In this document: piece after piece, positions 4,306 to 53,969 of the stretch
Layout of the letters: each line of letters starts with the position of its first letter
Position numbering within the stretch: position 1 is the first letter of the stretch
Source of the DNA: Minisyncoccota bacterium
GTDB taxonomy: Bacteria > Patescibacteriota > Minisyncoccia > Phycocordibacterales > Phycocordibacteraceae
NCBI GenBank assembly: GCA_041663025.1
Contig: JBAZRE010000001.1
Location: forward strand, 5,912 to 69,911
DNA length: 64,000 nucleotides
Direction of reading: 5' to 3'
Notes under the pieces: model-generated
Databases searched by the model: none
What the model was told of the DNA's origin: nothing
Seen by the model: the letters and a program-made list of their open reading frames with translations, nothing else
Translations under genes and position numbers: made by a program

Positions 4306-4884
4306 TTATGGTGCTGTAAAAATAATCCCGTAATGGTGCGACCCCGCGCGAAATGACTTCACCTTATGGAAGCCGTTATTGATAAAAAATTCTTCTGCTT
4401 CATGTTCAGTTATGACCTGCTCTGGCGAAGGACCCATACCCCCGTAACTTCCCGCCCAGTCGACAAGAAGGAGTTTGCCGCCAGACTTCAGCACGCGCCG
4501 TATCTCCTTCAAGAGTTCTGGGCGATTCTCGATTTGGAAGAGCGTGTTCGCAAGCATGACGGCATCAAGCGATGCGTCGCGCAAATGGGTGCCACCAAGC
4601 TTTTCGATATCGCCCCAAACCGTATCGATGATGCTCCGATGGTGTTCGTGTGAATTGAGTTTGAGATGCTTCAACACATCTTCTTGTATATCGATTGCGT
4701 AGACTCTGCCACTTGGCCCGACTACTGCAGCAGCCATGCGCGAATAGTGACCAGAGCCGGCGCCAAAGTCTCCCACCTGCATCCCCTCGCGGAGTCCTAG
4801 CTGGAGGACGTTATCTCTAGGAGAACTGAATTGCGCATCCATACCATATAAAATACCACGTGCGGCCCGCAGCGGGCCGCACAA
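4306..4884 (-). CDS. class I SAM-dependent methyltransferase
   Basis: 192 aa. SAM-binding motif I VGDFGAGSGHYS, an acidic loop AIDIQED, and post-motif LKSGGKLLLVDW. Confidence 0.75.
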   Translation of the reverse strand: MCGPLRAARGILYGMDAQFSSPRDNVLQLGLREGMQVGDFGAGSGHYSRMAAAVVGPSGRVYAIDIQEDVLKHLKLNSHEHHRSIIDTVWGDIEKLGGTHLRDASLDAVMLANTLFQIENRPELLKEIRRVLKSGGKLLLVDWAGSYGGMGPSPEQVITEHEAEEFFINNGFHKVKSFRAGSHHYGIIFTAP

Positions 4885-5210: not shown

Positions 5211-5253
5211 TATATCCTTATCTTTACCGACCGGTATTTATAAGAATATTCAG
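5211..5253. repeat. copy-specific direct repeat A1, downstream flank of wHTH-Cas2-like paralog 1
   Basis: ATATCCTTATCTTTACCGACCGGTATTTATAAGAATAT. It is about 80 percent identical over about 40 bp to 5857-5898, and 22 of the first 23 bp match. Confidence 0.6.
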
Positions 5254-5256
5254 AAG

Positions 5257-5838
5257 TTACATTAAAGGAAGATTGAATTGCCGTCGGATACCTTTGTCGT
5301 GTTCTATTGTATCGGCAATTGCATAGAGAACATCCTTGCCTATCTTGAGTTCTGCTTTGAGAAGCGCGATGAAATCTTCGCAATCATAAGGGTAGACCCA
5401 CACGCTATCTTGCAAACGAATGAATCCCACTTCGCGCATGACAGCACATAGACGAAATCTCACTCGGCTTCTTCGTTCGGGAATATCAAAGACGATCATT
5501 CGCCAACGCTTATCCCATTTCTTTTTCTGATTTTTAATAGCAACTTTCGCTTGCTCAAGAGCAACCGCTTTGCGTCCTTTAGGGGTTATTCGTAAAAATT
5601 TCTTTCCATCTCTTTCGATCCAGTTTGCATATCCTTTGGTTACTAAACGCCCTGATGCTGACTTTGCTCTATACCTCAAGTTGTATTTTTCATTTGGCAG
5701 GTATTTGAGGAGCTGAAGAGCGTTCCCAGCGATGGCCGCTACAGCAATAAAGCCCGTGACTGCGACGGCAGCAAGCACTGCGTGTTGGATATCTCGTTTC
5801 TTTTTCCTTTTTCGCGACGTCTCTTCGAGTTTCCCCAT
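5257..5838 (-). CDS. membrane-anchored winged-helix + Cas2-like domain protein (paralog 1 of 3)
   Basis: 193 aa with a basic N-terminus (RKRKKKR) and a TM helix (AVLAAVAVTGFIAVAAIAG). A wing-like segment (GRLVTKGYANWIERDGKKFLRITPKG) follows. The C-terminus WRMIVFDIPERRSRVRFRLCAVMREVGFIRLQDSVWVYPYDCEDFIALLKAELKIG matches the Cas2 pattern by eye (lVvYDI…rR.k..k.l..yG.RvQnSVFec…). Confidence 0.5.
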   Translation of the reverse strand: MGKLEETSRKRKKKRDIQHAVLAAVAVTGFIAVAAIAGNALQLLKYLPNEKYNLRYRAKSASGRLVTKGYANWIERDGKKFLRITPKGRKAVALEQAKVAIKNQKKKWDKRWRMIVFDIPERRSRVRFRLCAVMREVGFIRLQDSVWVYPYDCEDFIALLKAELKIGKDVLYAIADTIEHDKGIRRQFNLPLM

Positions 5839-5856: not shown

Positions 5857-5898
5857 AATATCCCTATCTTTACCGACCGATTGTTGATAAGGATACGA
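5857..5898. repeat. copy-specific direct repeat A2, upstream flank and promoter region of paralog 1
   Basis: ATATCCCTATCTTTACCGACCGATTGTTGATAAGGATAC. It contains the dyad ATCAA…TTGAT. Confidence 0.6.
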
Positions 5899-13609: not shown

Positions 13610-13612
13610 CTA

Positions 13613-13633
13613 CCGTAAGGTGTCACCTTACGG
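13613..13633. repeat. REP-like hairpin, solitary copy of family 1
   Basis: Perfect palindrome CCGTAAGGTGTCACCTTACGG. The same unit occurs at 40057, 40098 and 40830-40874 next to a RAYT gene. Confidence 0.8.
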
Positions 13634-13720
13634 ATTTACATCGGATGTCTAATTTGCTACCCTGCTCTACGGATATTTTGTTCCGTAACCTTAAGCCAGA
13701 ACACCAGAAAGGGGGTTCAT

Positions 13721-14464
13721 ATGCCACGAGAATTACAGAAAGTTACGCAGTATGAGTTCGATATGTTGGGCGCCGCGCTTGCGCAAGAGGGTTGGCAGAT
13801 TGAATGCCAATATTCGGTAAACGATATTGAGCCGATAATGCTCAACATCCTTGATTTCAAACTTACTCCTTTTGACACCGGAAAGGTGCAACTCGCTCTA
13901 ACCCTCCGAGAGAAAGGCGACTTGTTTAGGGAGGAGTTCGAGATTGAAGTCAAAAGAGTCTTTGCCGAAGGACAGCTCGGAATAGCGACCGGTGAACTAC
14001 GACGATTTACTGTCGCGGTCCGCAACCTACCGAGAATGCACCGCCCTGGTGCACGTTTAGGATTTGGTTATTGGCGCGTGCTTAAACCGAACACTTTCGG
14101 ACTTCTCTTCACCCGAAGCAAAGCAGCTCTGCCAGGGTGGCCGCTTCACAAACATCTTCAGCACCACCAACATCCTACGTACGGATTTGAAGAACATCTG
14201 AAGAGATACGGAAATGGTGACAATCTTCTCCGCACTGCGCGCTTTGCGCAATCACAAGCTCTTCAAGTCGGCGATATTCTCGCAACTGGTGACAAAGTTC
14301 TCTCTCCTCCGCGGAGAGGATTCAACGGTTCGGTTCTCATTCACCTAACCGGAGGATTCAACGGTCATTGGATTGATGTTGCGTCTCGACTCCCGATTGC
14401 CCTGCTAACTGCGGAAGATCATGCCCCTGCGGAAATCTGGAATCGAATCTGGAACCAAACGTGA
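13721..14464 (+). CDS. hypothetical protein
   Basis: 247 aa with a good SD (AGAAAGGGGG) before ATG. No recognisable motifs. Confidence 0.45.
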   Translation: MPRELQKVTQYEFDMLGAALAQEGWQIECQYSVNDIEPIMLNILDFKLTPFDTGKVQLALTLREKGDLFREEFEIEVKRVFAEGQLGIATGELRRFTVAVRNLPRMHRPGARLGFGYWRVLKPNTFGLLFTRSKAALPGWPLHKHLQHHQHPTYGFEEHLKRYGNGDNLLRTARFAQSQALQVGDILATGDKVLSPPRRGFNGSVLIHLTGGFNGHWIDVASRLPIALLTAEDHAPAEIWNRIWNQT

Positions 14465-14481
14465 TACCCCAAGCCTACGAA

Positions 14482-14514
14482 GAGCCCTCCCGCTCCTTGT
14501 GGGCTTTTTGTTTA
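14482..14514 (+). terminator. rho-independent terminator
   Basis: GAGCCCTCCCGCTCCTTGTGGGCTTTTTGTTT. Confidence 0.6.
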
Positions 14515-14516
14515 TC

Positions 14517-14558
14517 CACTATTTATAACGGTCGTAGATACTTTTTGATATTACTTCA
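14517..14558. repeat. copy-specific direct repeat B1, downstream flank of paralog 2
   Basis: …TTTATAACGGTCGTAGATACTTTTTGATATTAC. The core ACGGTCGT..ATA.TTTTTGATA is shared with 15143-15170. Confidence 0.55.
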
Positions 14559-15132
14559 GACCGAAATGTTCGCGCAGATGCTTATCGTTTTCAATTTCTT
14601 CAACAACCATATACAACACAGCAGACCCAATCTTTAACTCTGCTTTTAACAATGCAACGAAATCCTCACAATCGTATGGAAAGACCCATACGCTATCCTG
14701 TAGACGAACGAAGCCAATTTCCTGCATAAGAATTCGCAATCGATCGCGTGTCTTGCGGCGACGCTCCGGCACGTCAAAGATAACCACGCGCCACCTGCCA
14801 TTCCAGCGGCGTTTTTTGGAGAGATCTAATTTCTTTTTCTCGAGTTCGAAAGTAAGTTTCTTCTGTCCCGCATCCGTGATTTGCGCATATGATTTGCCAT
14901 CCCTTTTTTGAAACGTAACAAGTCCGAGCACTGCAAGCCTCCCAAGTGCAGTACGGTATTGGTAACGTAATTTCGCTCGTTGTAACGGAGGTAGTTTCGC
15001 AAGCGCTCCCGGCAGACCAGGCGCTATGGCCGCGACAAGTACGACACCCGATAGAGCAACAGCGGCAAGCAAACCAGCTTGGACATTTGTACGTATTCTC
15101 TTTTTCTTCGCTCCTGATTCTACATTCCCCAT
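14551..15132 (-). CDS. membrane-anchored winged-helix + Cas2-like domain protein (paralog 2 of 3)
   Basis: 193 aa with a basic N-terminus, a TM helix (AGLLAAVALSGVVLVAAIAPG) and a wing segment (GLVTFQKRDGKSYAQITDAGQKKL). The C-terminus is WRVVIFDVPERRRKTRDRLRILMQEIGFVRLQDSVWVFPYDCEDFVALLKAELKIG. Confidence 0.5.
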   Translation of the reverse strand: MGNVESGAKKKRIRTNVQAGLLAAVALSGVVLVAAIAPGLPGALAKLPPLQRAKLRYQYRTALGRLAVLGLVTFQKRDGKSYAQITDAGQKKLTFELEKKKLDLSKKRRWNGRWRVVIFDVPERRRKTRDRLRILMQEIGFVRLQDSVWVFPYDCEDFVALLKAELKIGSAVLYMVVEEIENDKHLREHFGLK

Positions 15133-15175
15133 ATCAAAAATATACCACGGTCGTGTATAGTTTTTGATACAGAGG
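15130..15175. promoter_or_regulatory. palindromic site B2 in the divergent promoter region between paralog 2 and the 81-aa ORF
   Basis: catATCAAAAAtataccacggtcgtgtatagTTTTTGATacag. It has 8-9 bp inverted arms around a spacer of about 20 bp, and is a diverged direct repeat of 14517-14558. Confidence 0.5.
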
Positions 15176-15264
15176 TGGTGCTTGCGGTATGGCTTGTGGG
15201 GTGGTATAAAAACCTCGGAGTTTTTGTTGTTTAACTGAAATCAACCGGAAGAAAGGAGCAGCCT

Positions 15265-15510
15265 ATGGAAAAAGAATGGAGAAATATCTTTGTTGTAATC
15301 GACCGGAAAAAGAAGATAGATCCTGTCAATACTCTGTCAATTTTTTTGAACATCTACGGCATTAAGCCAACGGAAGTGGTTATTGTGCAGACAACAAACC
15401 GCGGGGGCATTGATGATGTTTGCAATGTAGATGAAGTAAGAATTGATATGCTGATTTATGTTACAAAGGCGGCACTAATCCCGAACGGAAGGACATTGTT
15501 GGGGTTCTGA
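15265..15510 (+). CDS. small hypothetical protein (81 aa), divergent from paralog 2
   Basis: SD GAAAGGAG sits 6 nt before ATG, and a terminator hairpin follows at 15521-15565. Confidence 0.45.
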   Translation: MEKEWRNIFVVIDRKKKIDPVNTLSIFLNIYGIKPTEVVIVQTTNRGGIDDVCNVDEVRIDMLIYVTKAALIPNGRTLLGF

Positions 15511-15520
15511 AATCTCCAAG

Positions 15521-15565
15521 CTCACGAAAGCCCACACGCTTCTCGTGGGCTTTTCGTTTTTATTA
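15521..15565 (+). terminator. rho-independent terminator
   Basis: AAAGCCCACACGCTTCTCGTGGGCTTTTCGTTTTT. Confidence 0.6.
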
Positions 15566-15588
15566 TGATGTGCTAGAGTGGCGGAATC

Positions 15589-15849
15589 ATGTCAGCAGAC
15601 ACAAGAGTCGAAGTATCACGCGGGAAGAACGAGAGCGCGACCGCGCTTATTCGCCGCTTTACCCGCCGCGCGCAGGGGCTTGGCCTCGTGCGCGAGATGC
15701 GCGACCGCCGCTACTTCAAGCGGACGAAATCTAAGAATGTTGGCCTCAAGCGCGCCCTCATCAGCAAGGTTCGCCGCGAAAATTACAACGAGCTCGTGAA
15801 GCTCGGCAAGATTGATCCTGCAGCGAAGAAGGTTCGCGGGAAGCACTAG
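15589..15849 (+). CDS. rpsU: 30S ribosomal protein S21-like
   Basis: 86 aa, basic. ALIRRFTRRAQGLGLVREMRDRRYFKRTKSKNVGLKRA fits the S21 pattern (RRF.R…G…..R.R.YF.KP). Confidence 0.65.
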   Translation: MSADTRVEVSRGKNESATALIRRFTRRAQGLGLVREMRDRRYFKRTKSKNVGLKRALISKVRRENYNELVKLGKIDPAAKKVRGKH

Positions 15850-20590: not shown

Positions 20591-20649
20591 CATGTATCAA
20601 TTTTCATCCTATAGGATAAGAATTGAGACAACTTACTTTCACAAGTCAT
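20591..20649. promoter_or_regulatory. repeat C1: palindromic TCCTATAGGA-centred site upstream of 19726..20502 and downstream of paralog 3
   Basis: CATGTATCAATTTTCATCCTATAGGATAAGAATTGAGACAACTTAC. It is a near-duplicate of 21225-21276. Confidence 0.55.
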
Positions 20650-21227
20650 AGGAGTCGGAAGTGTTCCCGAAGTCGGCGATCTGATTCAAGTGCCTCGGCA
20701 ACGAATGAGAGCATTTCGCCCGTACCGCTCTTGAGGTGTGCGCGGACAAGCCCGATGAATTCATCACAGGGATATGGATATATCCAGACACTGTCCTGAA
20801 GCCTCAAGAAACCAGCGCCCATGAGAAGAGTCCGTAGTTGCGAACGAGCTCGCCTGCGCTTCTCGCGGATATCAAACATAACGACGCGCCACTTGCCATC
20901 CCAGAATACTGGTGCAGGAATGCGGTATTCGTTTGCGTACACCGTTCCAATCACCGCACGACCCTTTTCGGTCAACGAGGCATTGCGGTGTCCATACTTT
21001 CCTGATGTCTTTACGAGACCGGCGTACTCGAGACGGGTTATTGCCTGCGTGATACGACGGTACAAATCTTTCCGATTCGCCACACCACGATCAAGTTTTT
21101 TCAGAATGGTCAGTACCCTCGGAGCGACGAGTGCGACACCGAGCGCCCCACTCACTGCTAGCGTTCGCAAAATGAGATTGCGCATTGGCAGATATTTCCC
21201 GCGCGTTTCCGTCCGCATTTTCTTCAT
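20646..21227 (-). CDS. membrane-anchored winged-helix + Cas2-like domain protein (paralog 3 of 3)
   Basis: 193 aa with a hydrophobic helix (LAVSGALGVALVAP) and a recognition helix plus wing (ITRLEYAGLVKTSGKYGHRNASLTEKG). The C-terminus is WRVVMFDIREKRRRARSQLRTLLMGAGFLRLQDSVWIYPYPCDEFIGLVRAHLKSG. Confidence 0.5.
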   Translation of the reverse strand: MKKMRTETRGKYLPMRNLILRTLAVSGALGVALVAPRVLTILKKLDRGVANRKDLYRRITQAITRLEYAGLVKTSGKYGHRNASLTEKGRAVIGTVYANEYRIPAPVFWDGKWRVVMFDIREKRRRARSQLRTLLMGAGFLRLQDSVWIYPYPCDEFIGLVRAHLKSGTGEMLSFVAEALESDRRLREHFRLL

Positions 21228-21276
21228 GTATCAAATTATATCCTATAGGACAGAAATTGAGACATGTTATTAACAA
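21225..21276. promoter_or_regulatory. repeat C2: roughly 42 bp imperfect palindrome overlapping the paralog 3 start codon and promoter
   Basis: CATGTATCAA-attata-TCCTATAGGA-cagaaa-TTGAGACATG. The outer arms match 9/10 as inverted repeats around a perfect 10-bp core palindrome. Confidence 0.6.
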
Positions 21277-25812: not shown

Positions 25813-26672
25813 GTGAAAAACAAACGGTTATTCTTTATCATGGTGGATGCCCCGATGGCTTCGGGAGCGCCTATGCCGCATGGAAAAAATTTGGCGACAC
25901 GGCAGAATATATTCCATTAAAATTACATGAGCGGCCCATCCCAGAAGGACTCGAGGGTAAACATCTCTTTTTTATCGACTTCACCTATCCGCAGGACATC
26001 ATGGATGAGATTGTGAAGACTGCTGCGTCTGTGACGGTTCTCGATCACCATCTCGGCATACAAGAGGTTGTGGAGAGTATGCCGGATCATGTGTTTGATG
26101 AAAAACGATCTGGTGCAACTATTGCATGGAGCTATTTTCATCCCGATGTTCCCATCCCGTTCTTGTTAAAATATGTTGAAGATGCGGATCGGTATGTTTT
26201 CTTACTTCCTGATTCTCGCGCGGTGATCGCCTACGCGTATGCGCAGCGATTTACTTTTGAAGATTGGGATCATCTCGTGCAAGAATTTGAAAATGAACAA
26301 ACGCGCGCAACATTGATAGAGAAGGGTAAGGTATATGCAGAATATTTTGCAATCTTAGTCGAACAAATCTCCAAAAAGGCGATACTCGTGTCGTTTGAAG
26401 GACACACCTGTTATCTCTCAGCCGCGACTGACATGTTCAAATCGGACGTGGGGAACAATCTTGCTCACCTACATCCACCGCTTGCCATTATCGCAAACCT
26501 GCATGGCGACGTCATAAACGTGTCACTCCGGAGTGACTCCAGCGTTGATGTATCAGTTATTGCACGGAAATATGGAGGAAATGGACATCCTCATGCGGCC
26601 GCCTTTCGATTGAAGTGGGGAGACCCACTCCCTTGGGTAGTGTTAGATGAAAATGAAAATCCTAGCCATTGA
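25809..26672 (+). CDS. DHH-family phosphoesterase (NrnA-like)
   Basis: VILYHGGCPDGFGSAYA and VLDHH (the DHH motif), plus a DHHA1-like C-terminus (…GGNGHPHAAAF). Confidence 0.7.
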   Translation: MSEKQTVILYHGGCPDGFGSAYAAWKKFGDTAEYIPLKLHERPIPEGLEGKHLFFIDFTYPQDIMDEIVKTAASVTVLDHHLGIQEVVESMPDHVFDEKRSGATIAWSYFHPDVPIPFLLKYVEDADRYVFLLPDSRAVIAYAYAQRFTFEDWDHLVQEFENEQTRATLIEKGKVYAEYFAILVEQISKKAILVSFEGHTCYLSAATDMFKSDVGNNLAHLHPPLAIIANLHGDVINVSLRSDSSVDVSVIARKYGGNGHPHAAAFRLKWGDPLPWVVLDENENPSH

Positions 26673-27891
26673 AACCTCGTGTGACGAGACCGCAATTGCG
26701 ATACTCGAGTGCACTGGAGATGAAACGCATGCTGAGTTTAAAGTACTTGGGAACGCACTCCTCTCACAAATAGAAATTCACAAACAATATGGCGGCGTCT
26801 TCCCTGCCCTCGCAAAACGCGAGCACGCGAAGAATCTCGTGCCGATTCTCGAGGCAGCACTCGAGGAAGCAGAGCTATTGCATGAAGACACCCAAGCAAT
26901 CGCGGATGAGACCCGCGCCAAAATTTCAGAAATTTTGGCGCGTGAGCCCGGTCTCACTGAAACGTTTTTCGAATTCATTTCTGAATGTGAGCCTCCTGCG
27001 ATCGACGAAATCGCCGTCACGGCCGGCCCCGGCCTCGAGCCGGCGCTCTGGGTCGGTATTAATTTTGCAAAGGCGCTCGCGCTCGTTTGGCAGAAGCCGC
27101 TAGTCGCGGTGAACCATATGGAGGGACACATACTCGCCGCACTTGCTCGGCAAGAAGCACGAAGCACGAAGCACGAAGAACCAAACGAATCTCAAACAGA
27201 AAAATTGGAAATTAAAAATGTGCAATTCCCCATACTCGCCCTCCTGATTTCTGGTGGACACACGCAGCTCGTCTTGATGCGTGAATGGCTTCAGTACGAG
27301 CTTATTGGAGAGACGCGTGATGATGCTGTTGGCGAGGCCTTCGATAAGGTTGCGCGCATGCTCGCACTCCCCTACCCTGGCGGTCCTGAGATCTCCAAGC
27401 TTGCAGAAGAAGTTAGGACATCGAATGTCCTAGTTTCTGAAATAGGACATTCGATGTCCAGACCCGAATTCAAACTCCCGAGGCCAATGATCAATGAAAA
27501 CAGCTGCGACTTCTCATTTGCCGGACTAAAAACTGCGGTGTTAAATTTATTGAAAAAGATCCCCGACATAAGTGACGATGATAAGAAACACATAGCGCAC
27601 GAATTCGAAAATGCCGTCACTGATGTTTTGTGGAAGAAGACTGCGCGTGCACTTGAAGAAACTGGCGCCCAAACACTCATCATCGGTGGTGGCGTCTCGG
27701 CCAACACTCACATCAAGCGGACTTTCCAAGAAAATGTCTCCCAAGAATTTTCTGAAGTTGCACTCAAGATACCGGCGGCATCGCTCTCAACCGATAACGC
27801 TATTATGATTGCCATCGCTGGCTACTATCGTGCCTTGCGCAAAGAATTTTCAAATGATTTTGTTGCAAATGGCAACCTCCCTCTTATCTGA
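26647..27891 (+). CDS. tsaD: tRNA N6-adenosine threonylcarbamoyltransferase TsaD (Kae1/YgjD family)
   Basis: MKILAIETSCDETAIAI…NHMEGHILA…ISGGHTQL…GGGVSAN. It carries two in-frame insertions. Confidence 0.9.
   Translation: MKMKILAIETSCDETAIAILECTGDETHAEFKVLGNALLSQIEIHKQYGGVFPALAKREHAKNLVPILEAALEEAELLHEDTQAIADETRAKISEILAREPGLTETFFEFISECEPPAIDEIAVTAGPGLEPALWVGINFAKALALVWQKPLVAVNHMEGHILAALARQEARSTKHEEPNESQTEKLEIKNVQFPILALLISGGHTQLVLMREWLQYELIGETRDDAVGEAFDKVARMLALPYPGGPEISKLAEEVRTSNVLVSEIGHSMSRPEFKLPRPMINENSCDFSFAGLKTAVLNLLKKIPDISDDDKKHIAHEFENAVTDVLWKKTARALEETGAQTLIIGGGVSANTHIKRTFQENVSQEFSEVALKIPAASLSTDNAIMIAIAGYYRALRKEFSNDFVANGNLPLI
27413..27462. repeat. in-frame palindromic element inside tsaD
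   Basis: GGACATCGAATGTCC – 14 nt – GGACATTCGATGTCC. Each 15-mer is self-complementary and the two are reverse complements. It encodes RTSNVLVSEIGHSMSRP. Confidence 0.8.
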
Positions 27892-40056: not shown

Positions 40057-40118
40057 CCGTAAGGTGACACCTTACGGTTTTTGGTATTTCCCCAGCTCCG
40101 TAAGGTGACACCTTACGG
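40057..40118. repeat. two tandem REP-like hairpins (family 1) upstream of the RAYT gene
   Basis: CCGTAAGGTGACACCTTACGG at 40057-40077 and again at 40098-40118. Confidence 0.85.
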
Positions 40119-40827: not shown

Positions 40828-40874
40828 GGCCGTAAGGTGTCACTTTACGTCAGGCGTAAAGTGACACCTTACGG
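40822..40874. repeat. compound REP-like hairpin (family 1) downstream of the RAYT gene
   Basis: CCGTAAGG + CCGTAAGGTGTCACTTTACG-tcaggc-CGTAAAGTGACACCTTACGG (a 20-bp stem). Confidence 0.8.
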
Positions 40875-52292: not shown

Positions 52293-52306
52293 GCTTGAAA
52301 ACAAGA

Positions 52307-52346
52307 AAACAAGGGTGCCCCTTGCAGCAAGGGGCACCCTTGTTTT
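52307..52346. repeat. GC-rich REP-like hairpin (family 2) between recG and 52346..53182
   Basis: AAAACAAGGGTGCCCCTTG-cagca-AGGGGCACCCTTGTTTT (stem of at least 15 bp). It may also act as a bidirectional terminator. Confidence 0.8.
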
Positions 52347-53182
52347 TACTCCGCCGTTTCTTCTTTCCCCTTATCTCTCTCCGCAACAAACTTTTTTACT
52401 TCTTCATAACTCATCTGCTTGGGCCAACGAAGATCTCCTTCTTCATTATAAATGGGCAACAGCAATTCAGGTTTGTCTTTGTATGCCTCTATTTGAGCAT
52501 CAAGAGTTCCGTAATCACCAACAATCCCGCGGAAATAGCGTGGCGCTAAGCGATGACTAAGGGCAAAACCATCTTCGCTAGTTACGATGGTTGCACCTTC
52601 CTCATTCAATTGATCATCATGAAATCCATGCAAATTATCCATCGCACGATAGGTCCGACTCTTGCCTGGAAATAATTCCGAAGCTCTTTTGCTTTTGCCC
52701 ATCTCAACCCTTTCAGAAAACGATGATAGATCGAAAATTATAAAGACATTTGGATTGCGACGACTCATCCAGTGAGAGTCTTTTATTGATTGGGGTTGTT
52801 CATATTTATATGCGTCCATCCTCCCGAGAATATTGAAGAAAACATTCCCGCCCGATGACTCTCCATCCCTCAAATTTTTTGACCAATTTTCTTTGGATAT
52901 TTCTGTCTTTCCCCAAGTAAAATCTGGACATCCCAGCAATCCTTCACGATATATTTTCGCTAGAACTTCTTTTTTTAGACTATGTTCACCCCCGCCACCA
53001 GCATCTCTGGTTACGTTAATTTGAGTAAAAGCTGTTCCCTTTTTATTGATGTCCTGCACTTTCTCCATTATCTTCTCAATCGTTTCTGGTGAGAGATCTT
53101 TTTCTAGCTCTTCGAGACTCTTTTCTTCTGGCACACTCTCGACCTTTGGCGCTTCTGGCTTTTGCGGTCCTTCTAGGCTCAT
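52346..53182 (-). CDS. hypothetical protein bracketed by family-2 REP hairpins
   Basis: 278 aa, acidic N-terminus (…PEEKSLEELEKDLSPETIEKIMEK…). No recognisable motifs. Confidence 0.45.
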   Translation of the reverse strand: MSLEGPQKPEAPKVESVPEEKSLEELEKDLSPETIEKIMEKVQDINKKGTAFTQINVTRDAGGGGEHSLKKEVLAKIYREGLLGCPDFTWGKTEISKENWSKNLRDGESSGGNVFFNILGRMDAYKYEQPQSIKDSHWMSRRNPNVFIIFDLSSFSERVEMGKSKRASELFPGKSRTYRAMDNLHGFHDDQLNEEGATIVTSEDGFALSHRLAPRYFRGIVGDYGTLDAQIEAYKDKPELLLPIYNEEGDLRWPKQMSYEEVKKFVAERDKGKEETAE

Positions 53183-53222: not shown

Positions 53223-53269
53223 CAAGGGTGCCCCTTGTATCTTGCACAAGCTTACAAGGGGCACCCTTG
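53223..53269. repeat. REP-like hairpin (family 2) upstream of the second RAYT gene
   Basis: CAAGGGTGCCCCTTG – 17 nt – CAAGGGGCACCCTTG. Confidence 0.8.
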
Positions 53270-53293: not shown

Positions 53294-53923
53294 ATGAGAA
53301 AACGCGATTATAAAGAATTCGCTCCCGACACGTCCTATCACATCTATAACCGTGGAAACGGTAAAATGGACATTTTTCGTGATGAACAAGATTACTTGAA
53401 CTTTCTCAAGCGCCTTCGCCTCTTGCTCGGTAAAACAAGGGGCACCCTTGCATCGTCAATTCGAGTTACGCCATTTGAATCAGACGACTTCTCGCTTATT
53501 GCCTACTGTCTAATGCCAAATCACTTCCACTTGCAGGTAGAACAATGCGGAGAAGTGTCATTAAGTAGCCTCTTGCTTAAGGTGTGTACGAGTTATTCTA
53601 TGTATTTCAATCGTAAGTATGACCATGTCGGGCACGTGTTCCAAGATCAATTTAAAGCCATTCCGGTTGAGTCAGATAATCAAATGGCCGCATTGTCGGC
53701 ATACATACACCAAAATCCAAAAGTGGCAGGGTTAGTAGACACTCTCGACGCGTGGGTTTATAGCAGTTATCCGGATTATATTGGACTTCGGCAGGGCGAT
53801 CTTATTGATCCCGAATCAGTACTCGGTCAATTTCCAAATAAAGAAGCCTACAAAAGTTTCGTGGACGAGCAATACGAAGAAATTCTTGAACGAAAAAATA
53901 TCAGAGAACTCCTTCTTGATTAA
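53294..53923 (+). CDS. IS200/IS605-family Y1 (HUH) transposase-like protein, REP-associated (RAYT-like), second copy
   Basis: 209 aa. YHIYNRGNGKMDIF…, the HUH motif CLMPNHFHLQV, and the Tyr region YIHQNP. A family-2 REP half-site AAAACAAGGGGCACCCTTG lies in frame at 53433-53451 and encodes KTRGTLA. Confidence 0.75.
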   Translation: MRKRDYKEFAPDTSYHIYNRGNGKMDIFRDEQDYLNFLKRLRLLLGKTRGTLASSIRVTPFESDDFSLIAYCLMPNHFHLQVEQCGEVSLSSLLLKVCTSYSMYFNRKYDHVGHVFQDQFKAIPVESDNQMAALSAYIHQNPKVAGLVDTLDAWVYSSYPDYIGLRQGDLIDPESVLGQFPNKEAYKSFVDEQYEEILERKNIRELLLD

Positions 53924-53924
53924 C

Positions 53925-53969
53925 TGCAAGGGGCACCCTTGTAATTTAATTACAAGGGTGCCCCTTGCG
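53925..53969. repeat. REP-like hairpin (family 2) downstream of the RAYT gene
   Basis: CTGCAAGGGGCACCCTTG-taatttaat-TACAAGGGTGCCCCTTG. Confidence 0.8.

Follow-up and report, generated by a model that had tools for sequence, protein, structure and literature searches.

Paired 40-bp palindromes bracket a PaaX-type gene in a patescibacterial genome: a probable autoregulator in a compact inserted cassette

Why should a small bacterial gene carry the same palindrome at both of its ends? The question is raised by a 64,000-nt stretch of DNA from a Minisyncoccota bacterium (Patescibacteriota; contig JBAZRE010000001.1, positions 5,912 to 69,911), here called the window, in which three related genes, paralogs 1, 2 and 3, each of exactly 193 codons, are flanked by repeats of their own. 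Attention is given mainly to paralog 2, which lies between a hisS-like gene and rpsU. It probably encodes a shortened PaaX-type autoregulator with a 40-bp operator on either side of its gene, the whole forming a compact, leaderless cassette inserted at this place.

A repeat search of the window found a 38-nt direct repeat (14513-14550 and 15132-15169, 29/38 identical, spacing 619) that encloses the open reading frame (ORF) of paralog 2, 14551-15132, to within one base at either end, with one copy 1 base from the stop codon and the other overlapping the last start-codon base. Both copies are imperfect palindromes of 38-40 bp, named U2 (upstream) and D2 (downstream). A first-pass annotation of this DNA, whose quoted letters were confirmed at their coordinates, had noted a 9-bp inverted repeat upstream of paralog 2; its arms, TATCAAAAA (15132-15140) and TTTTTGATA (15161-15169), are perfect across a gap of 20 nt, and they prove to be the outer arms of U2. 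A lone 9-bp inverted repeat would not be significant, with ∼9 expected per 64 kb and ∼50 separate places (156 nested matches) seen. The repeat had been described as centred between divergent genes, but it lies at the start of paralog 2, over the promoter and the start codon: the ATG of this gene is 18 nt downstream of the U2 centre, whereas the ATG of the divergent ORF 15265-15510 is 115 nt from the centre and 95 nt from the edge of the site. The diverged direct copy reported after the paralog 2 stop codon is real, although its extent is 14513-14550 rather than 14517-14558. Its arm distal to the gene is degraded by a ∼20-nt difference from the closest relative, locus L081, and D2 looks diverged because part of this arm has been lost. 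Between flanks of 600-bp segments, a match of 29/38 lies at or above the 99.7th percentile of random placements, and some of the trials that reach it are real loci.

The same layout recurs at the other two genes of the family in the window, both returned by tblastn with paralog 2. Pairwise identity among the three proteins is 38-48%, and the flank repeats, each of a different sequence, are 22/24, 29/38 and 32/38 identical at paralogs 1, 2 and 3. The earlier suggestion of a locus-specific repeat at every paralog, occurring twice and built on a common theme, thus holds at all three loci and, as described below, across the family. The CGGTCG core proposed as that theme is less general, being present in the paralog 1 flanks (as TACCGACCG on the plus strand) but replaced by CTATAG at paralog 3. 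Each of the three site consensuses matches the window at its own two places and nowhere else, even when 5 mismatches are allowed, and no further target of any of the three regulators was found there. Across 376 kb from 64 related loci, just two extra copies of locus-specific palindromes were found, in L032 (∼322 nt upstream of the gene) and L078 (∼1638 nt upstream). The sites are private to each gene. In L078, ATGGG and a 74-residue ORF come 17 nt from the centre of the third copy.

Conservation was assessed with a family scan of one genome per species, which gave at least 563 relatives, of which the best 80 loci were used. All 80 are from Patescibacteria (Kaiserbacteria, Paceibacterota, Nomurabacteria, and Adlerbacteria), often with several per genome, and the family comprises at least 365 clusters at 50% identity (E ≤1e-30). 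Both flanks were available for 75 loci, and each of these was scored by the ungapped 30-nt stretch in which its upstream and downstream flanks agree best, with a threshold of 22/30. This was reached in 66/75 homologous loci (median 24/30) and in 0/141 displaced controls, and most of the remaining loci also carry the repeat, altered by a 1-nt indel or by a flip of the centre. An AT-rich promoter background, which the first-pass annotation had itself named as the possible source of the shared cores, is excluded because the layout is the same at the three paralogs and because of this difference between homologous loci and controls.

The mean over 64 loci puts the identity of upstream to downstream copy at 0.62-0.88 between -20 and +19 of the centre and at 0.25-0.30 outside, and this abrupt drop indicates that the repeated unit is exactly the 40-bp site. 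The downstream copy is kept in ∼90% of loci, with proteins down to 40% identity. Copies within one genome are more alike than copies between genomes in 3/3 orthologous groups (0.78 vs 0.67, 0.67 vs 0.53, and 0.82 vs 0.58): the two copies change together. No description of the family or its architecture was found in the searchable literature on PaaX, Cas2-like proteins, and Patescibacteria, and no relatives were found among the 2.9 million viral contigs of IMG/VR.

The site itself is bipartite, with arm symmetry near-complete at positions 2-4 from the centre, weak at 5-9, and strong at 10-19. The centre is always C-N4-G, most often CGGTCG/CGACCG (∼37 loci) or CTATAG (∼19), with a few cases of CGGCCG, CCATGG, and CGATCG; the outer ends are ATATC-like in all sites, and the rest of the 40 bp is locus-specific. 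The downstream copy, which has no promoter, is more symmetric than the upstream copy. Mismatches between the arms show no G:U bias (G:T vs A:C on the sense strand, 79 vs 100 upstream and 74 vs 72 downstream), which argues that the site acts as double-stranded DNA and not as an RNA hairpin. Asymmetric GGTC/GACC centres far outnumber symmetric GGCC and GATC centres, and the central dinucleotide is flipped (GT vs AC) between the two copies in L002, L005, L027, L031, L042, L069, and L025. The outer arms TATCCACA / TGTGGATA of many sites, including window positions 14512-14520 and 5882-5890, resemble DnaA boxes (TTATCCACA), and an extra DnaA-box-like word often occurs near -55 in loci with a site centred at -18. 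Words like TTATCCACA are ∼2-fold enriched in the window (21 vs 11 expected) but not clustered, and an origin of replication or DnaA-box cluster was rejected.

The upstream copies overlap predicted promoters. A -10-like hexamer, TAnAnT, lies at -12 or -13 from the A of the ATG in 67/79 loci, often with TG before it, and a Shine-Dalgarno-like motif occurs in just 6/79. From the position of the hexamer and the scarcity of Shine-Dalgarno words, the genes appear to be leaderless, their transcripts beginning with the ATG or beside it. Across the family the palindrome centre is at -18 or ∼-40 from the ATG, so placed that the 38-40-bp palindromes overlap their own predicted promoters. Where the centre is at -18, as in paralogs 2 and 3, the site runs from -38 to +2 and the -10 box falls in the weakly symmetric part of one arm; where it is at ∼-40, as in paralog 1, the site runs from -60 to -20. 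The extended -10 box of paralog 2, TGgTATATT (15139-15147, minus strand), is inside U2.

The encoded protein belongs to the PaaX-like superfamily, combining a winged helix with the Cas2-like PaaX_M domain. PaaX_M, the only Pfam domain found, matches paralog 2 with E 4.3e-20 and scores 72, 60.7, and 63 bits in the three paralogs, above the Pfam gathering score of 24; the C-terminal PaaX_C effector domain was not found by Pfam. With 43, 31, and 36 bits, the paralogs fall far short of the 264.55-bit cut-off of the NCBIfam PaaX equivalog TIGR02277, of which model positions 37-142 of 279 are covered, and there are no paa genes among the neighbours (gyrA, a methyltransferase gene, hisS-like, rpsU, ybeY, ftsA, ftsZ, and trxB-like). 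Partial matches are also found to TIGR01573 cas2 (26.3, 20.1, and 28.4 bits; cut-off 24.5) and to Pfam Cas2 PF09827 (19.5, 17.4, and 20.1 bits; cut-off 23.8). Public names of family members include 'Cas2', 'PaaX', and 'hypothetical', and the name 'CRISPR-associated endonuclease Cas2' is explained by the cas2 model being just above its cut-off for two of the three paralogs.

An AlphaFold2 (AF2) model, with a predicted local distance difference test score (pLDDT) of 74 overall and >90 for residues 110-193, has a helix, a helix, and a wing followed by a ferredoxin fold. Its best Foldseek match is E. coli PaaX (8a39, E 1.4e-5, 140 columns covering winged helix and Cas2-like domain), with 3kfw at E 5.7e-4. 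PaaX 8a39 and Rv0674 lead the ranking, followed by Cas2 chains and AspA, and a profile search of PDB sequences agrees. An FD(I/V)PE motif is invariant in the family and missing from the PaaX-like Rv0674. Its aspartate is predicted, from model positions, to occupy the position of the metal-binding aspartate of Cas2 beta-1, and we take both FD(I/V)PE and a second family motif, QDSVW, to resemble Cas2 motifs. In all three paralogs, residues ∼19-40 (in paralog 2, window 15013-15078, minus strand) form a run of 20-25 uncharged Ala/Gly/Val/Leu residues with a Kyte-Doolittle mean of 1.9-2.5 and basic residues on both sides, which could be a membrane anchor or else a buried helix or the first helix of the winged-helix domain.

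Comparison of related loci shows that a ∼1-kb unit (14513-15515) of two palindromes, the gene, and a small divergent ORF was inserted into the hisS-like/rpsU gap, duplicating the local terminator. The two terminator copies are 37/45 identical, with an alignment score of 48 against a random maximum of 28, and are the only two matches in the window; between them lie D2, paralog 2, U2, a conserved promoter-like region, and the small ORF of 81 residues, for which an extended -10 promoter-like site is predicted (TTGCGG, 17 nt, TATAAA; 15184-15212) and no Pfam or PADLOC match was obtained. In the closest relatives, L081 and L082 (93% protein identity), the gene is likewise between hisS-like and rpsU, and the terminator of L081 is also present in two copies (40/43). 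Terminator and downstream palindrome abut in the window and are 19 nt apart in L081. The divergent 5′ region at 15170-15264 is conserved with L081 (reverse complement of 4610-4712), but the ORF behind it has been swapped, with 81 residues in the window and an unrelated 117 in L081.

Empty versions of this locus are common. Among 64 relatives, metagenomic loci holding both hisS-like and rpsU, none has a family member, the two genes are ≤120 nt apart in 43, and none of the five empty gaps read contains a palindrome. One locus without the cassette, L088, has the 247-residue ORF that precedes the left terminator copy in the window, a single terminator, and then rpsU. A presence/absence polymorphism with a target-site-type duplication is therefore observed for the cassette, although the length of such duplications, 17-51 nt, is atypical. 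In 17/64 relatives the gap is 400-1050 nt long and holds other, non-PaaX content, so this is a variable spot (window 13610-15590; L087-L166). The 247-residue ORF (13721-14464) has no Pfam match; a short unrelated ORF takes its place in L081, and a search of metagenomes found no relatives of it. It contains an exact 14-nt direct repeat, GAGGATTCAACGGT, at 14316-14329 and 14352-14365 (spaced 36 nt), which encodes a repeated GGFNG.

Other orthologues (68-82% identity) are found at the 3′ end of a beta-CASP RNase J-like gene (L001-L011 and L084) and, in L012, in a third context, so that the same subfamily and site type occur in at least three contexts. In several of these and other loci the cassette is flanked by outer direct repeats, in which the end (3′) of the upstream host gene is duplicated (Table 1), and no inverted outer matches were found. 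The distal copy ends in ...DSVKKI-stop in L003 and L005 and in ...DSVKKFV-stop in L001, and in L003 it is followed by a terminator; the shared C-terminal ending and this terminator make the distal copy look like the original end of the gene. Movement is rare, because paralog 1 orthologues have been kept downstream of gyrA in at least 16 species.

The analysis establishes the repeats, their conservation and sharp 40-bp extent, the promoter overlap, the protein fold, and the insertion; binding, repression, looping or roadblock, and the manner of movement are proposals. The two flanking palindromes would be private operators of the paralog 2 protein. U2 would cover -35 to +2 of the leaderless promoter, with the -10 box in one arm, so that the bound protein would shut off its own transcription by negative autoregulation, like E. 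coli PaaX at Px. D2 marks the other end of the cassette, where it would most likely either bind protein cooperatively with U2, looping the ∼620 bp between them, or block transcription across the cassette boundary. Since each paralog evolved its own site sequence, several cassettes could share a genome without cross-talk. In some relatives the downstream site also falls on the predicted promoter of the host gene that comes next. One subgroup has, ∼40 nt beyond the downstream copy, the ATG of a host gene that is co-directional and apparently leaderless (encoding RNase HII, a PD-(D/E)XK nuclease, malic enzyme, RuvA, or a NUDIX protein); this is the geometry of the upstream copy relative to its own gene, and the site could regulate the neighbour in that subgroup. 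Such regulation is not the general role of the downstream copy, as D2 faces the end of a convergent gene.

Several observations weigh against the autoregulator explanation. D2 has no obvious promoter to control where it stands. The distance between the sites (median 646 bp) shows no helical phasing (Rayleigh p ∼0.7), so looping gains no positive support, and at 620-650 bp this result is uninformative, neither supporting nor excluding it. Covariation with the site is weak for the winged-helix region (partial rho 0.21 vs 0.13 for the Cas2-like domain), and because this slight excess is confounded by phylogeny, covariation between protein and DNA was rejected as proof of binding. The agreement of the two copies could be maintained by gene conversion, as in L003 the unrelated 51-nt outer repeat is 100% identical. 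Invariant polar residues in the Cas2-like domain (D120, E123, R125, R129, Q145, S147, and Y153-E156) exceed the needs of a plain dimerisation module. The AF2 model is unconfident for residues 1-60, falling below 55 in residues ∼19-40, and this segment is as hydrophobic as a membrane helix (19-residue Kyte-Doolittle mean 2.4-2.5); if exported, the protein could not bind DNA.

The main rival, which is compatible with the autoregulator explanation, is possible though unlikely. It treats the palindromes as the ends of a very small mobile element whose protein binds them, possibly as a transposase- or integrase-like catalyst, with autoregulation as a side effect. Insertion sequence (IS) transposases bind their own terminal repeats, and here the palindromic nature of each site makes terminal inverted repeats of the two cassette ends as well. 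At hisS-like/rpsU some genomes have the unit and others lack it, the five empty gaps read having no palindrome; one subfamily with the same site type occupies the RNase J-like 3′ end, the hisS/rpsU gap, and the L012 context; outer direct repeats of a host 3′ end or terminator recur in several independent contexts; the small ORF beside the gene differs between the window and L081; and the invariant aspartate at the end of beta-1, which would map to a metal-binding residue of Cas2, is absent from Rv0674. Opposed to this, searches of Pfam, NCBIfam, PADLOC, and PHROGs returned just PaaX_M and Cas2-like matches, with no known transposase or recombinase fold and no Cas1, and the duplications are variable in length, unlike those of any transposase. 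The junctions in L003 and L081 are off the palindromes, with 19-45 nt between, paralog 1 orthologues are fixed at the gyrA site, relatives are missing from the viral contigs, and the 38-48% identity of paralogs within a genome implies no recent burst of copying. A bolder version, which is quite unlikely, makes these the smallest self-contained mobile cassettes so far seen in bacteria, with a winged-helix/Cas2-fold protein that recognises both end palindromes and takes a direct part in excision or integration. If true, movement might involve, for example, a circle with one palindrome, the long duplications of host terminators and gene 3′ ends would be its scars, and a Cas2-fold protein would have a Cas1-independent role in DNA transactions, with a repeat-insert-repeat product formally like the duplication of a CRISPR repeat.

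It is improbable that the repeats are non-functional scars, the downstream copy being left over as the promoter and operator of a deleted tandem duplicate or as an insertion duplication, and the two copies kept similar by gene conversion. Behind the downstream copy of L060, L066, and L021 come ATGGG and a short run of N-terminal-like codons, as if from a truncated second tandem copy, downstream copies in the paralog 2 group keep a -10-like TATAAA box, and outer repeats with no plausible binding role also stay identical (51/51 in L003). However, the similarity stops sharply 20 bp either side of the centre, whereas scars of mixed age would be ragged, and the downstream copy, besides being widely retained among distant proteins, surpasses the upstream copy in palindromic symmetry. 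It is very improbable that the palindromes work as RNA hairpins at the two mRNA ends (5′ and 3′), where they would stabilise or terminate the transcript or be bound by the Cas2-like domain. Folding is better than in shuffled sequence for U2 (-18.4 kcal/mol, z -5.1), the paralog 1 downstream site D1 (-12.3, z -2.4), and the paralog 3 downstream site D3 (-12.7, z -2.6), and perfect 18-bp stems followed by U-rich tracts occur in some relatives; yet the sense strand has no excess of G:U wobble, D2 forms a poor hairpin (-5.8 kcal/mol, z -1.8) that lacks a U-tract, no Rfam family matches at or near the sites, and the upstream copy is not transcribed whole, as the -10 box lies inside or downstream of the palindrome and the mRNA is apparently leaderless. 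The hairpin and terminator reading was rejected on the G:U, D2, and Rfam results. Extremely improbable is a degenerate one-spacer CRISPR-like unit beside a Cas2 gene, in spite of the two paralogs that exceed the NCBI cas2 cut-off and of repeats that are 38-40 bp long and partly palindromic, as CRISPR repeats are: the 'spacer' would be the 582-bp gene itself, the repeat sequence differs at each locus, Pfam Cas2 is below cut-off, and the best structural match is PaaX. Such a mini-array is effectively ruled out by its anatomy, with no tandem array in the window and no cas1 among the neighbours.

Known systems share parts of this arrangement. Cas2 is the next-best structural match, and many members are named Cas2 by NCBI, but here the domain is fused to a DNA-binding domain, sequence matches to Cas2 cover just 35-50 residues, and there is no Cas1, no CRISPR array, and no other cas gene nearby. 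In IS elements and in the tyrosine transposases associated with repetitive extragenic palindromes (REPs), known as RAYTs, a single gene lies between lineage-specific palindromes or inverted repeats, the presumed binding sites of its product. The RAYT fold is HUH/Y1, REPs occur in hundreds of scattered copies, and the target duplications of IS elements measure 2-14 bp; in the present family the sites are in essence restricted to the two flanks and outer repeats are 17-51 nt. The C proteins of restriction-modification systems are small, often have leaderless transcripts, and use palindromic C-box operators that overlap their own promoters and differ between systems. They differ from the present family in their Xre-type helix-turn-helix, in having the operator upstream only, and in controlling an adjacent restriction gene. 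They are described as autoregulatory (PMC2632904). AspA, the centromere-binding protein of Sulfolobus plasmid pNOB8, is a small winged-helix protein that binds a palindrome, as is proposed here, and has a weak profile match to residues 53-100 (E 0.03-0.08) besides its Foldseek match, but it belongs to a three-gene partition system, lacks a Cas2-like domain, and has sites that do not bracket the gene.

The closest likeness is to PaaX of E. coli and Pseudomonas, the regulator of phenylacetate genes. The E. coli protein recognises the 39-bp palindrome TGATTC-N27-GAATCA and keeps RNA polymerase off Px, its own promoter, which is thereby repressed (reviewed in PMC9493321). Both proteins have an N-terminal winged helix and a Cas2-like central domain, and both have a long palindrome of nearly equal span, 39 bp in one case and 38-40 bp in the other. 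The patescibacterial proteins differ in being only 193 residues long, without the C-terminal ligand-binding domain and without paa neighbours, and in having the hydrophobic N-terminal segment and the Cas2-type aspartate. They also differ in occurring as several paralogs per genome with private putative operators, in having such an operator at both ends of the gene, and in their predicted leaderless mRNA.

Table 1. Features of the three cassettes in the window, and outer direct repeats at related loci
Feature	Coordinates	Strand	Description
Paralog 2	14551..15132	-	193 aa, shortened PaaX-type protein: N-terminal hydrophobic segment, winged helix, Cas2-like domain
U2, upstream palindrome	15131..15170		Proposed operator, 40 bp; arms TATCAAAAA / TTTTTGATA; centre CGGTCG 15148-15153; reaches paralog 2 start codon
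D2, downstream palindrome	14512..14551		Centre CGGTCG 14529-14534; directly 3′ of paralog 2 stop codon
Left copy of intrinsic terminator (outer direct repeat)	14469..14513	+	Just after stop 14462-14464 of ORF 13721-14464; ends where D2 begins
Right terminator copy	15516..15559	+	Just after stop 15508-15510 of ORF 15265-15510; just before rpsU promoter
81-aa ORF	15265..15510	+	Inside inserted unit; divergent from paralog 2
Paralog 1	5257..5838	-	193 aa; 47% identical to paralog 2; downstream of gyrA
U1, upstream palindrome	5857..5896		Centre ∼38 nt before ATG of paralog 1
D1, downstream palindrome	5211..5250		Centre 26 nt after stop of paralog 1
Paralog 3	20646..21227	-	193 aa; 38% identical to paralog 2
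U3, upstream palindrome	21226..21265		CTATAG centre; ends on start codon of paralog 3
D3, downstream palindrome	20592..20631		Centre 34 nt after stop of paralog 3
Outer repeat, L001			RNase J-like; 36/40
Outer repeat, L003			RNase J-like; 51/51
Outer repeat, L005			RNase J-like; 16/16 and 20/22
Outer repeat, L008			RNase J-like; 33/36
Outer repeat, L012			Host gene not identified; 41/44
Outer repeat, L027			Epimerase; 44/47
Outer repeat, L066			ligA; 30/34
Outer repeat, L067			gyrA; 19/19

Other repeats and palindromes were seen in the window. A near-perfect 40-bp palindrome (17/20; ACATCGAATGTCCTA...TAGGACATTCGATGT) lies at 27418-27457, inside ORF 26647-27891, and its sequence is not related to those of the cassette sites. 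One hairpin family, with the stem CAAGGGTGCCCCTTG, is present three times (52306-52338, 53223-53261, and 53926-53960), flanking the genes 52346-53182 and 53294-53923, and a second recurring hairpin, CCGTAAGGTG / CACCTTACGG, is found at 13613-13633, 40057-40118, and 40830-40874.

To our knowledge, Patescibacteria (also called the candidate phyla radiation, CPR) have tiny genomes with very few recognisable regulators, and their transcription is almost unstudied. A gene-bracketing pair of operators, orthogonal paralogs, and insertion scars would appear to be an unusual elaboration of the PaaX-type repressor/operator theme, and the family described here would offer these organisms a large group of regulators whose operators can be read from sequence, together with a leaderless promoter architecture. 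Its natural orthogonal protein/operator pairs may be of use for studying the evolution of DNA-binding specificity and as parts for synthetic biology. A widespread annotation error is also corrected, as the many members called 'CRISPR-associated endonuclease Cas2' inflate CRISPR-component counts in CPR. The insertion scars at the 3′ ends of housekeeping genes point to one way of acquiring genes in organisms regarded as poor in mobile elements and, if the protein itself mediates the movement, these cassettes would be a new kind of element.

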